Of a DNA stretch of 59,257 nucleotides, positions 28,801-35,667 are shown piece by piece. Position 1 is the stretch's first letter, and the number at the start of each line of letters is the position of its first letter. A program made the translations under genes and the position numbers. The stretch is from Candidatus Uhrbacteria bacterium RIFOXYB12_FULL_58_10 (GTDB lineage Bacteria; Patescibacteriota; Patescibacteriia; UBA9934; GWF2-40-263). The stretch covers positions 1 to 59,257 of the forward strand of contig CALRHL010000003.1 of assembly GCA_943359455.1 (NCBI GenBank). The letters are read 5' to 3'. The notes under the pieces were generated by a model, which saw only the letters and a program-made list of their open reading frames with translations, had not been told where the DNA came from and ran no database searches.

Positions 28801-29263
28801 CCATGAGATTCTTTTAACTAGATCCAGACTTCTGAAAACCTTCTAAAATCGATGAGATGTTGGCGCGCGGTGAGCAGCGGAGTAAGACGTACACGGATGT
28901 ACGTCGTCGAGCAGCGCAGACGCAAGCCGACAGATCGCGATTTTTGAAGGTTTTGATCCAAACTGATAGTGGTTGTAGAGTTCGACTTATTAGTACCACT
29001 CCGCTACACGTGTTACCACGCTTCGACGTATGGCCTATCAACCTGCTCGTCTCGCAGGAGTCTGATAACGAAGACTTATCTTAGGGTCGGCTTCGTGCTT
29101 AGATGCTTTCAGCGCTTATCCGAACCGAACACCGCTACCCGGCGATGCCCTTGGCAGGACAACCGGTACACAGGAGGTTCGTGCTTCTCGGTCCTCTCGT
29201 ACTAGAGAAGCATCCCTTCAATCTTCTAACGCCCATGGTAGATAGGAGACCGACATTCTGTTA

Positions 29264-30080
29264 CTTGCAAACCGCGTCAAAATTCTGAAATTGCACTGCG
29301 GTGTCCTGGACATTTCTGCCAGGATCTACATGTCGCCATGTAGTTCGGGCTATATCTTATCCGACACATCGTCGGACTCTAGCGTATAGTCTCTGAGGGT
29401 TCTAAATATGGTGAAATTTCTTACGATATCGTCCGTTTTGATTCATCCGATAAGCAATCTTTAGAAGCCTTTTTGCTCCTGCTTTATTTAGATGATGACC
29501 ATTGGCCATCTTCGTCACAATGTTTGCAAACAATGAAAAATCATTTGCTTTCTCTGTTTGCAATAGATGCTTTTGGAAGAACGGAATGATCTTTTTGAGA
29601 AGATCTTCGCGATCTCGAACAACGAACACATACGTCATGTCACGTGGATTTTTGGCATGATTTGCCTTCACATAACCGCAACCAAGAAATGGAACAAATG
29701 CGTCAAGCACTGCTCTACTACTCTCACGTTGACTGACATGAAATTCAGGAATGAACTTCACACCAACCTTCATGCGAGGATCTTGATAAACAGCAACGTG
29801 AAAGCTTCCTTCGCCATCCACGAAACCAACGATATAACCCGCTGATAACTTCTTCATATCTAGTCTTCCCTGCTGATTATCTGCACTCATCACTTTTTCA
29901 CGTATCAATCATCTAAATTTTACCACGTAGTGTGAGATTCTCCAACCTCCCATTCTCCAAGAGAGGCACCAGACCTTCCAGCATTTAGCTAGATTTTTGG
30001 ACAGCACGGTCGTCTGGCCGCTTTGGCCAGAGATATTTTTTTCGATAAGATTCTAACAGTCAGAAAACGTCGATATCTTT
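29264..30080 (-). mobile_element. group-I-like intron 1 in 23S (between U2604 and U2605 by my E. coli alignment)
   Basis: Exon GAGACAGT is followed by the intron, then exon TCGGTCTCCTATC. The 5' exon ends in U and the intron ends in G. It contains AAGATATAGCCCGA, matching the group I J8/7-P7 consensus. Confidence 0.8.
29402..29890 (-). CDS. LAGLIDADG homing endonuclease (single-motif, I-CreI-like size)
   Basis: It starts MSADNQQG... and carries the motif GFVDGEGSF. It is a paralog of the ORF at 32640-33155. Confidence 0.85.
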   Translation of the reverse strand: MSADNQQGRLDMKKLSAGYIVGFVDGEGSFHVAVYQDPRMKVGVKFIPEFHVSQRESSRAVLDAFVPFLGCGYVKANHAKNPRDMTYVFVVRDREDLLKKIIPFFQKHLLQTEKANDFSLFANIVTKMANGHHLNKAGAKRLLKIAYRMNQNGRYRKKFHHI

Positions 30081-30184
30081 ACTGTCTCACGACGTTCTGA
30101 ACCCAGCTCACGTACCGCTTTAATTGGCGAACAGCCAAACCCTTGGGAGCTTCTTCACCCCCAGGATGCGATGAGCCGACATCG

Positions 30185-32258: not shown

Positions 32259-32565
32259 GGCACCCGCCCCAGGTAAACTACCCACCAGTTCCTGTCCCTG
32301 ACACCGGATTCACGGCGTCTGGTTAGAATTCACATAACGCAAGGGTGGTGTCTCATTGGTGCCTTGCGGCTCCCACCTACACTGAACAAGCGGAATATAA
32401 ACTCAAGAACAAGTTGTAGTAAAGCTTCACGGGGTCTTTTCGTCTAACCACGGGTAATGAGCATCTTCACTCATCTTGCAATTTCGCCGAGGACTACGTT
32501 GAGAGAGTCATAAACTCGTTATGCCATTCGTGCAGGACGGAACTCACCCGTCAAGGAATTTCGCT

Positions 32566-33287
32566 CAAGTGTTATCTCTAAATGAGATGGTCCGTTGAGT
32601 ATTGGACCCTGCATGTCACCATGCAGATCGGACTATATCTTATCCATCATTACTTGGACTCTGGCGTGTAGTCTCTGAGGATTCCAGAAATCGTGATGGA
32701 ACCTTTCGGTTCATCTGCTGGATTATTGTTGCCGCACTTCGAAGTCCTTGATCTGTTTTATGCAATCCGCGATCCATAAGATCGAGAATGTATACAAACT
32801 TTTCAAAGTCATCGTATTTCGCGGTACGTAATGGATAACGCATGAAAAACGGAACGATCTTCAAACGAAGGTCGCTTTGTGTTCTCACACAATATCGAAG
32901 CAACGATTCCCTGTGATTGTCATGGCGTCGGTTGATATAAATTCTTCCGCAGTCAAAGAATTCACGAATGAGTTCTAGACACGGTCGACTTTTCTCACCT
33001 TGCGTCACAACAAATTCAGGAAATAATTGCCATCCAGATCTCGTGGTTTTGTTTCGGATCATACTGACTGAGAAGCATCCTTCTCCATCAACAAACCCGC
33101 AAATCCACGAGGCGATTTCTGGCCTTTCCTGCTGATTGTCTGAGTTCTGTATCATACTATGGTTACATTATACCATAGAAGAACGAGATTCAGATGTTCC
33201 AGCATATAGCCAGATTTTTCTTTTACATCTTCGACGGCATATCGAAGTTCAAAGAGAGGACATTCACCTCACTAAGGCAAGCAATTC
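32566..33287 (-). mobile_element. group-I-like intron 4 in 23S (after U1931)
   Basis: Exon TCCTAAGGT is followed by the intron, then exon AGCGAAATTCCTTG. The boundaries show U at -1 and a terminal G. It contains TAAGATATAGTCCGA. Confidence 0.8.
32640..33155 (-). CDS. LAGLIDADG homing endonuclease (single-motif)
   Basis: 171 aa starting MIQNSDNQQER, with the motif GFVDGEGCF. The stop codon abuts the J8/7-like GATATAGTCC. Confidence 0.85.
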   Translation of the reverse strand: MIQNSDNQQERPEIASWICGFVDGEGCFSVSMIRNKTTRSGWQLFPEFVVTQGEKSRPCLELIREFFDCGRIYINRRHDNHRESLLRYCVRTQSDLRLKIVPFFMRYPLRTAKYDDFEKFVYILDLMDRGLHKTDQGLRSAATIIQQMNRKVPSRFLESSETTRQSPSNDG

Positions 33288-35667
33288 ACCTTAGGACGAT
33301 TATAGTTATCGCCGGCGTTCATCCGCGCTTCAGTCGAAGGCTACCCCCCGCCTTGCGGCGGGGATGACCCCCTTCTTTAACGTTCGGACACTGGCCAGGC
33401 ATCAGCCCGTATACATCATCTTTCGATTTAGCACGGACCTGTGTTTTAGGTAAACAGTCGGTTTATGTCTTTCGCTGCGGGTCTTCTCCTCCCGGAGAAA
33501 ACCAGGCCTTATCCCGAAGTTACGGCCACTTAATTGCCGAGTTCCTTAACGTAGTTTCTCTCGTACACCTTGGCACATTACGCGCCCACCCACCTGTGTC
33601 GGTTTCCGGTACGGGTCTACTTATGATTAGCCCTAGCGGCTTTTCTAGGCTCCATGTCCTTTCCCCTCGAGAGCATTGCTGCCCCCTTGCGATCACACCC
33701 GAGTTTAACGATTGGCGGATTTGCCTACCAATCACCAAGATGTGCCCAGCGCTATAGCCATAGAACGTGGGAAATTTCACGAAGCGTCCCCGCTTCAGTC
33801 ATAAACAGAGTGCAGGAATATTAACCTGCTGTGCATCGGCTACGCCGTTCGGCCTCGCCTTAGCTCCCGACTCACCCTGGGTCGATTCTCGTTGCCCAGG
33901 AAACCTTGGGTTTACGGTGAAGGGGACTCTCACCCCTTTTCATGCTACTTATGCCTACATTCTCACTTCGCAACGCTCCACGGCGTGGTCACCCAGCCGC
34001 TTCAGCGCGATGCGAATGCTTCCCTACCGCTCCGACGTTACGTCGGAGCCCTCAGCTTCGGTACGTTGTTTGAGCCCCGGTACATTTTCGGCGCAGAAAA
34101 GCTTGACCAGTGAGCTGTTACGCTATCTTTAAAGGATGGCTGCTTCTAAGCCAACCTCCTGGTTGTATAAGCCTTTCCACCACCTTTCACACTTAACAAC
34201 GATTTAGGGACCTTAGATTGAGATCTGGGCTGTTGCCCTTTCGACGTATGGAGCTTAGCCCCCATCGTCTGACTGCCGGCCGGTAAACTGGTATTCGGAG
34301 TTTGATTAGGACACCTACCTTGCGGCGGTGATCCCGTTCAGTGCTCTACCCCCAGTTTAACAATACGCCGACGCTAGCCCACAAGCTATCTCGGGAAGAA
34401 CCAGCTATTACCCAGTTCGATTGGAATTTCTCCGCTAACCACAGCTCATCCCCCAGTTTTGCACAGCTGGTGGGTGCGGCCCTCCACGACCTGTTACAGT
34501 CGCTTCAGCCTGGCCATGGCTAGATCACCGGGTTTCGGGTCGTGTATATGCCACCATCTCATCATGTACTCAAAACACCATTGCTGATGCGTCGAGTACA
34601 AAATGAGAACACGCGGGTTAACGCTCGCTTTCACTACGGCTTCGTCCCAGAGGACTTAACCAAGCGACATACAGCACACTCGTAGGCTCATTCTTCAATA
34701 GGAACGCCATCACCCAGCTTGCGCCAGGCTCTGACTCCTTGTAAGTATACGGTTTCAGAACTATTTCATTCCCCTCCCGGGGTATTTTTCAGCTTTCCCT
34801 CACGGTACTTGTTCACTATCGATCAAAACACGTATTTAGCCTTACCACATAGTCGCGGTAGCTTCCCACAGGATTTCTCGGGTCCCGTGGTACTTAAGAA
34901 AAATCACAATGATGAGAGAAAATATTTCGCGTACAGGACTTTCACCTTCTTTGGTGCCACTTTCCAGAGGCTTCCCCTATACATTCTCTCGATCACCGAT
35001 GCCTGGAAGGACATCACGTAATCCTCTTACAACACTTCTGCTGCAACGGCTTCCACCTTTCACTGCCGAAAACTTCAGAACTTGCGTTCATCCACCTTCA
35101 ACAACTTCACAACAAAAGTTTAGGCTGTTCCCCTTTCATTCGCCACTACTTAGGGAATGGACTCACACAATGAATTCATATGTGCGAGTAATATCTTTTT
35201 CTTTTCCTCTGGGTACTGAGATGTTTCACTTCCCCAGGTGCCTTTCTATAACCTATGTATTCAGTTATAGATGATGCGGCATTCCCCGCACCGGGTTACC
35301 CCATTCGGACATCTCCGGATCAAAGGTTGCTTGCCACCTCCCCGAAGCTTTTCGCAGGCTGCTACGTCCTTCATCAGCATGTTTTGTCGAGCCATCCTCC
35401 GTATACTCTTATTCCTCTACAACCACTATCAATTCAGATCGGACAATCACATTTGGCGATCTTTTGATTCACGATTTCGTCACTCGTTCACCGTACATCT
35501 TTTGTACGCCTCACTTCGTTCCTCATCCTTCATCAAAATCTCATCCAAATCTGATCGTCCTCCACAGGGGTTAGAATTCTGTGTCTTAAATAAATAGGAT
35601 TGACTTACTATCAATATTTTTATTTGGATCTAGTTGTTCAATTGTGAACGATCTCGGACGACACTTT

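Follow-up and report, generated by a model that had tools for sequence, protein, structure and literature searches.

Four probable mobile group I introns with LAGLIDADG genes in the 23S rRNA gene of a Candidatus Uhrbacteria bacterium

What interrupts the 23S ribosomal RNA (rRNA) gene of Candidatus Uhrbacteria bacterium RIFOXYB12_FULL_58_10, and how could a cell in which more than half of this gene is inserted sequence produce a continuous rRNA? The gene lies on the minus strand of a 59,257-nucleotide (nt) stretch of DNA (the window; contig CALRHL010000003.1 of assembly GCA_943359455.1, positions 1 to 59,257), and four inserts divide it into five exons. It is the sole 23S gene and very probably carries four mobile group I introns, independent of one another, at the sites L1931, L2262, L2500 and L2604; their splicing and spread are deduced from the sequence. 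Each insert contains an open reading frame for a predicted LAGLIDADG homing endonuclease (HE1 to HE4, numbered like the introns). An earlier note on this DNA had proposed four group I introns with LAGLIDADG reading frames, and the Rfam matches, P1 helices, terminal G, P7 pair and Pfam matches agree with it.

~35422..28969, minus strand: 23S rRNA gene, detected in five pieces with Rfam RF02541 (LSU_rRNA_bacteria) and aligned to the E. coli 23S rRNA with MAFFT
35422..33288, 32565..32258, 31292..31053, 30184..30081 and 29253..~28969, minus strand: the five 23S exons

The positions of the inserts were determined by aligning the minus strand of 28900-35500 with the E. coli 23S rRNA gene (L001:1493-4396). 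Insert 1 follows E. coli U1931 (window 33287..32566, 722 nt), insert 2 follows U2262 (32257..31293, 965 nt), insert 3 follows U2500 (31052..30185, 868 nt), and insert 4 follows U2604 (30080..29254, 827 nt). The exon sequence beside each of the four junctions is near-identical to that of E. coli, and the boundaries cannot slide because the adjoining bases differ. The sites given in the earlier note (1931, near 2262, 2500 and 2604) thus become exact; its lengths of 722 and 868 nt stand, whereas those of 968 and 817 nt have to be replaced by 965 and 827 nt. From 3' to 5', the exon blocks measure ~285-289, 104, 240, 308 and ~2135 nt, and the matching distances in E. coli are 300, 104, 238 and 331 nt. 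Of the spacings of 299, 104 and 238 nt that had been said to match E. coli, only that of 104 nt does so exactly. Together, the introns account for 3382 of the ~6458 nt of the gene, or 52%, in line with the previous statement that over half of the gene is intron. A U precedes the insert and a G ends it in all four cases, a pattern that had been recognized in three.

The sites are also defined by relatives. A total of 400 genomes of the same phylum (401 with this genome) were searched with HE3 and HE4 as queries, and the conserved exon flanks were then located in the returned loci to score sites as occupied or empty. At each of the four sites, some genomes of the phylum have an intron (670-1019 nt), and others are exactly empty, with a distance of 0 between the flanks. 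Therefore, the boundaries are fixed independently of E. coli. The ends of intron 2, which the earlier note had considered ambiguous by 4 nt, are set at 32257 and 31293 by the E. coli alignment together with the empty sites of the relatives.

The inserts were searched alone with the Rfam model Intron_gpI (RF00028), which has a gathering score of 50. With 59.2 bits (E value 9e-14), intron 2 exceeds this threshold, and the scores of introns 1, 4 and 3 are 35.5 bits (1e-6), 29.6 bits (7e-5) and 18.2 bits (0.18), respectively. The covariance-model comparison suggested at the outset therefore matches all four inserts, intron 3 weakly. Manual pairing identifies a P1 helix with a U.G wobble at the 5' splice site in every intron (7, 4(+3), 7 and 6 base pairs (bp) in introns 1-4). 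Clear P10 pairings, made by bases immediately upstream of the guide, are seen in introns 1, 3 and 4, with 5, 6 and 5 bp, respectively. The guanosine-binding G-C pair of P7 is kept in all four introns, each with a terminal G (omega-G), and the J6/7-P7 and J8/7-P7 strands, P3, P4, P8 and P9 are found in each of them. The J8/7-P7 element, which had already been noticed in all inserts, reads GAUAUAGUC in introns 1 and 3, GAUACAGUC in intron 2, and GAUAUAGCC in intron 4. The identification of all four inserts as group I introns is supported by these elements.

Alternatively, the inserts could be classical intervening sequences (IVSs), whose excision by RNase III is not followed by ligation and leaves the 23S rRNA in fragments, as has been suggested for some short insertions in bacteria of the candidate phyla radiation (CPR) (Tsurumaki et al. 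2024, J Bacteriol, PMC11270868). Such an origin is highly improbable here, given the group I cores, U.G guides and terminal G of all four inserts, none of which forms a simple extended hairpin. Fragmenting IVSs do occur in bacterial 23S rRNA genes, but they sit in the tips of helix 25 or helix 45, and not in the conserved strands of the peptidyl-transferase region, where the sites 1931, 2262, 2500 and 2604 are located.

The group I organization can be traced through each intron, starting with intron 1.

33287..32566, minus strand: intron 1, site L1931, 722 nt, group I (Rfam 35.5 bits; manual pairing)
33284..33272, minus strand: guide of intron 1; UUGCU forms P10 with the 3' exon, and GCCUUAG forms P1 with CUAAGGU, with a U.G wobble
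33213..33199, minus strand: P3-P4 of intron 1
33155..32640, minus strand: HE1, 171 amino acids, single-motif LAGLIDADG (ICGFVDGEG; PF00961, LAGLIDADG_1, E 8e-23)
32679..32609, minus strand: P7, P3', P8, J8/7 and P9 of intron 1, followed by P9.1 and P9.2 up to 32574; terminal G at 32566

The P1 of the L1931 family covaries: among relatives, a switch of the exon from CCUAAGGU to CCUAUGGU is accompanied, at precisely the matching position, by GCCAUAG in place of GCCUUAG in the guide. The L1931 introns of five of 15 distinct genomes (L012/L067, L052, L054, L055 and L057) end in A, not in the near-universal G; their boundaries are unambiguous.

31052..30185, minus strand: intron 3, site L2500, 868 nt, group I with P7.1/P7.2 (IA-like; RNAalifold, nine homologues)
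31045..31027, minus strand: extra L1 hairpin of intron 3
31026..31014, minus strand: guide of intron 3; AUAUCG forms P10, and GGGUGCU forms P1 with GGCACCU, with a U.G wobble
31013..30998, minus strand: P2 of intron 3
30986..30972, minus strand: P3-P4 of intron 3
30935..30294, minus strand: HE3, 213 amino acids, double-motif LAGLIDADG, I-SceI-like (LLGDG, YMDDG; PF03161, LAGLIDADG_2, E 6e-39)
30338..30195, minus strand: P7, P7.1, P7.2, P3', P8, J8/7 and P9 of intron 3; terminal G at 30185

Intron 3 is of the P7.1/P7.2 (IA-like) type, and therefore fits the Rfam model poorly. Comparative folding of the nine L2500 introns with RNAalifold recovers P1 (with the U.G pair in 9/9), P2, P4 and P5 in the 5' part, and P7, P7.1 and P7.2 (both between P7 and P3'), P8 and P9 in the 3' part. 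Compensatory changes are present in 19 of the 26 pairs of the 3' half. The predicted comparative structure confirms intron 3 as a real group I intron despite its weak Rfam score.

Two further features of the L2500 introns concern their 3' ends. Four of the nine (L010, L012, L013 and L015) end in A, with unambiguous boundaries and an intact G-C pair in the P7 pocket. The end of intron 3, CCGACAG, is complementary to exon positions +4..+9 (UGUCGG; window 30176-30192), and the same complementarity is present in L016 and L017. As judged from this pairing, a hairpin can form over the 3' splice site, where it would compete with P10.

30080..29254, minus strand: intron 4, site L2604, 827 nt, group I without P2 (Rfam 29.6 bits)
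30078..30014, minus strand: two L1 hairpins of intron 4
30011..30000, minus strand: guide of intron 4; GACCG forms P10, and GCUGUC forms P1 with GACAGU, with a U.G wobble
29992..29978, minus strand: P3-P4 of intron 4
29908..29402, minus strand: HE4, single-motif LAGLIDADG (IVGFVDGEG), 168-amino-acid open frame (PF00961, LAGLIDADG_1, E 4e-20)
29397..29304, minus strand: P7, P3', P8, J8/7, P9 and P9.1 of intron 4; terminal G at 29254

The guide of intron 4, GCUGUC(U), is kept in ten L2604 homologues. Because it stands directly before P3, the L2604 family is without P2. The two hairpins within the P1 loop are an extra of the copy in the window. A second candidate for P1, ACUGUU at intron nucleotides 21-26, would place a U-A pair instead of U.G at the splice site; it was rejected because the downstream GACCG/GCUGUC yields both P1 and P10 and is the conserved guide of the relatives. 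HE4 is likely to start at the AUG at 29857, which gives a protein of ~151 amino acids.

32257..31293, minus strand: intron 2, site L2262, 965 nt, group I (Rfam 59.2 bits; alignment of eight homologues)
First 302 nt of intron 2, with the Rfam match at 32221..31972, minus strand: complete ribozyme core
32253..32210, minus strand: L1 hairpin of intron 2, with the bulge CCGUUACC at 32243..32236
32206..32200, minus strand: P1 guide of intron 2, GGGC(CCU); GGGC pairs with GCCU, with three more pairs past a mismatch
31946..31281, minus strand: HE2, 221 amino acids, double-motif LAGLIDADG, I-SceI-like (LLGDG, FMDDG; PF03161, LAGLIDADG_2, E 1e-49)
31304..31293, minus strand: conserved 3' tail of intron 2, UUAACACAAUUG

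In the core, P3, P8 and P9 covary among the eight L2262 homologues. The bulge of its L1 hairpin is a perfect complement, over 8 bp, of bases +8..+15 of exon 3 (window 31278-31285). The relative L017 has a compensatory change in this pairing (GUUGC with GCAAC), and L036 lacks the P1-loop hairpin and has a canonical 6-bp P10 instead. The duplex of bulge and exon has a calculated energy of -18.3 kcal/mol, compared to -12.9 +/- 2.5 kcal/mol for shuffled sequences, 9 of 300 of which are as low; this is modest support. It is possible, although doubtful, that the L2262 family recognizes its 3' exon by a distal guide, CCGUUACC pairing with +8..+15, and not by a textbook P10, with the HE2 reading frame filling all of the 680 nt that separate the ribozyme core from the 3' splice site.

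The HE2 reading frame begins downstream of P9.1, fills the rest of the intron, and continues past the 3' splice site to a UAA in exon 3 (GGUAACGG; stop codon at 31283..31281), 12 nt into this exon. L036 has the same read-through of the endonuclease frame, whereas the other L2262 relatives stop 3-13 nt before the splice site, in the conserved tail UUAACAYAAUUG that holds their stop codon. If recognition by a distal guide is true, it would represent a natural variant of group I 3'-splice-site selection, and translation of the endonuclease would be physically tied to the unspliced precursor.

The reading frames of the other three introns are placed differently in relation to the ribozymes. That of HE1 runs from L5 through P4', P6 and L6 into P7, P3' and P8, and ends at J8/7; that of HE3 starts in L5 and ends within P7.2. 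The HE4 frame is contained in L6, with its stop codon 5 nt ahead of J6/7. All four proteins are full length and have Pfam matches far above the cut-off, no internal stop codons, and the full set of acidic motif residues. In the PDB, the matches of HE1 and HE4 are to individual halves of I-OnuI-family enzymes and to whole 170-amino-acid enzymes, which are homodimeric. As single-motif proteins with matches to single LAGLIDADG domains, HE1 and HE4 are expected to form homodimers. By contrast, HE2 and HE3 carry two motifs and are therefore expected to be monomers: for HE2, the match to I-SceI extends over the entire enzyme (residues 7-213, E 5e-34), and HE3 matches 6x1j and I-SceI, the latter over the whole length (E ~1e-10). 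From these features we infer endonuclease activity for HE1-HE4.

The four introns fall into two pairs by their endonucleases, which raises the possibility that introns 1 and 4, and introns 2 and 3, arose by duplication and spread within one gene. Identity is 36% both between HE1 and HE4 and between HE2 and HE3, and each pair belongs to one Pfam family. However, each endonuclease is closer to those found at the same site elsewhere: HE3 is 44-59% identical to L2500 endonucleases in eight other genomes, and HE4 is 48-52% identical to L2604 endonucleases and 36-37% identical to HE1. A maximum-likelihood tree of 26 proteins separates L1931 from L2604 with support of 100/98, and one of 16 proteins separates L2262 from L2500 with support of 100/100. 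The architectures also differ within each pair, as P7.1/P7.2 are present only in intron 3 and a reading frame positioned after P9 only in intron 2. Duplication within the gene is thus hardly credible. Since the endonucleases cluster strictly by site, the introns represent four independent site-specific lineages and are not duplicates within the gene.

The genome of ~1.07 Mb has unlinked 16S and 23S rRNA genes, and no second 23S gene is present in the assembly, which is 97.7% complete. Its size, the unlinked genes and the small genomes of its relatives in the phylum suggest that the organism belongs to the CPR (Patescibacteria). In the absence of another 23S gene, ribosome production would require removal of the introns. 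In the proposed mechanism, each intron would fold into a group I ribozyme after transcription, and its internal guide would pair with the last 4-7 bases of the upstream exon to form P1, with the U.G wobble marking the point of cleavage. The P7 pocket would bind a free guanosine, which would attack the 5' site. The terminal G of the intron would then take the place of the guanosine in the pocket, and the freed exon end would attack the 3' splice site, so that the exons would be ligated into a continuous rRNA. Each LAGLIDADG enzyme would cleave alleles of its own site that lack the intron, and repair would copy the intron into them; the occurrence of both empty and occupied alleles of all four sites in the phylum supports such cleavage indirectly. 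The introns were acquired or inherited independently, as site-specific lineages that recur across the phylum. Splicing of the four introns is what we infer from their conserved cores and guides.

Several observations weigh against this interpretation. Three of the four Rfam scores are under the gathering score of 50. The 3' strand of P7 in intron 4 reads UAGCC, compared to UAGUC in relatives, which creates an A.C mismatch at 29349; it adjoins the guanosine-binding G-C pair, and all ten relatives have a standard or compensated pair at this position. The C at 29349 may be a genuine variant or a wobble that is tolerated, or it may result from an error in the assembly. In intron 2, the contiguous P1 has just 4 bp and a canonical P10 is nearly absent (1-2 bp). 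The mismatch in intron 4 and the short P1 and P10 of intron 2 could reduce self-splicing or impose a dependence on protein. Finally, a comparison of three metatranscriptomes and one metagenome with 28600-35800 returned only community rRNA contigs of ~100 nt, none of them assignable to the organism. Two of the RNA runs leave the intron bins empty, and the third gives values close to zero there. Some of the contigs, with sides shorter than 30 nt, connect 31292 with 32258 or pass from 33288, 31053 or 30081 directly into exon-like sequence; they show only that other organisms have intron-less rRNAs with the same junctions and give no verdict on splicing here. The RNA runs examined are likewise compatible with IVSs excised without ligation.

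The same features of introns 4 and 2 make these two the likeliest candidates for a requirement of at least one intron for a protein helper, such as the LAGLIDADG protein that it encodes, in the role of a maturase. Fungal mitochondria are known to have LAGLIDADG maturases, and the weak PDB matches of HE1 include a bI3 'mRNA maturase' and I-AniI. In addition to the P7 mismatch, at a pair kept in ten relatives, and the short P1 and P10, the 3' splice site of intron 2 is ~680 nt from its core. On the other hand, the A.C pair is tolerable as a wobble, all other core elements are intact, and the introns of the relatives have ordinary cores. A helper requirement is unlikely, and group I splicing by the introns' own ribozymes is the preferred interpretation.

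Insertions in rRNA genes are widespread in CPR bacteria, as the earlier note had stated and as is documented by Tsurumaki et al. (PMC11270868): 82% of CPR 23S genes have insertions, with 968 insertions in 284 genes and up to 16 insertions and up to 5,750 bp in total per gene (mean 1327 nt, SD 1112). Of the 23S insertions, 45% were classed as group I. LAGLIDADG_1 reading frames were reported at 1917, 1931, 1952, 2593, 2604 and 2657, and the endonucleases cluster by site. Introns 1 and 4 match the insertion sites 23IS7 (1931) and 23IS13 (2604) of that study in combining a group I intron with a LAGLIDADG_1 reading frame at those positions. The site 2604, regarded in the earlier note as not a classical one, has thus been catalogued for CPR bacteria since 2024. 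The equation of L2262 and L2500 with the sites 23IS9-11 of that study rests on the survey presented here; no paper that uses the labels L2262, L2500 and L2604 was found in a search of the literature. The gene in the window resembles the published CPR genes in the concentration of several group I introns in the 3' portion of the 23S gene, LAGLIDADG_1 at 1931 and 2604 and LAGLIDADG_2 at other sites, clustering by site, and patchy presence. There is no essential difference, and with 3382 nt of intron, compared to the mean of 1327 nt, this gene is at the high end. Among the 401 genomes, searched with two queries, the maximum number of endonuclease-bearing introns per 23S gene is four, the number in this gene, and five genomes, including this one, have at least four LAGLIDADG matches in total. 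The description of four introns as a heavy load is accurate for these genomes but not for the literature, with its up to 16 insertions. The gene is at the upper end of the known distribution and not outside it. It introduces no new principle, because the phenomenon and the 2604 site have already been published for CPR bacteria.

Large-subunit (LSU) rRNA introns of cyanobacteria, Thermotoga, Simkania and Coxiella (Haugen et al. 2007, PMC1995217) include L1931 introns with single-motif LAGLIDADG genes. They are also similar in having reading frames that reach from a peripheral loop into the core, P7.1/P7.2 in some cases, and grouping by site; an overlap between reading frame and core is an established trait of LSU introns in bacteria (PMC1995217). 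However, those bacteria have one to three introns, located at L1917, L1931, L1951 or L2593, and that compilation includes neither L2262, L2500 and L2604 nor I-SceI-like double-motif enzymes. HE2 and, more weakly, HE3 resemble I-SceI, encoded by the omega intron of the yeast mitochondrial LSU gene, in having two motifs in ~215 amino acids and belonging to an LSU group I intron. Unlike the omega intron, those described here have a bacterial host and are inserted at L2262 and L2500, and the reading frame of intron 2 extends from after P9.1 to the 3' splice site.

Outside the 23S gene, further RNA genes and LAGLIDADG sequences are present. A group I intron of ~660 nt interrupts the initiator tRNA-fMet gene in its anticodon loop: the 5' half of the gene begins at L002:1031, Rfam Intron_gpI matches L002:1501-1687 with 62 bits, and the 3' half, with T arm and CCA, ends near L002:1772. 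This intron and the four in the 23S gene bring the number of group I introns in the genome to at least five. A third LAGLIDADG_1 reading frame, on contig C1 (669-1091, minus strand), is 39% identical to HE4 (E 7e-18) and situated beyond the 3' end of the 16S gene (C1:1374-2795), at a distance of ~280 nt; neither Rfam nor ARAGORN finds an RNA gene around it.

28799..28691, minus strand: 5S rRNA gene, directly downstream of the 23S gene (Rfam RF00001, 74 bits)
L002:1031-1772 (contig C35, ~3858-4599): tRNA-fMet gene with its intron

The 23S gene of this bacterium is a fully intact, intron-saturated rRNA gene, with four ribozymes and four apparently functional, predicted endonucleases around the peptidyl-transferase center. 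It is a source of four candidate meganucleases with defined rRNA targets, two of which are compact I-SceI-like predicted monomers. The organism provides a test case of a cell with one rRNA operon that would face four obligatory splicing events for each ribosome it produces.

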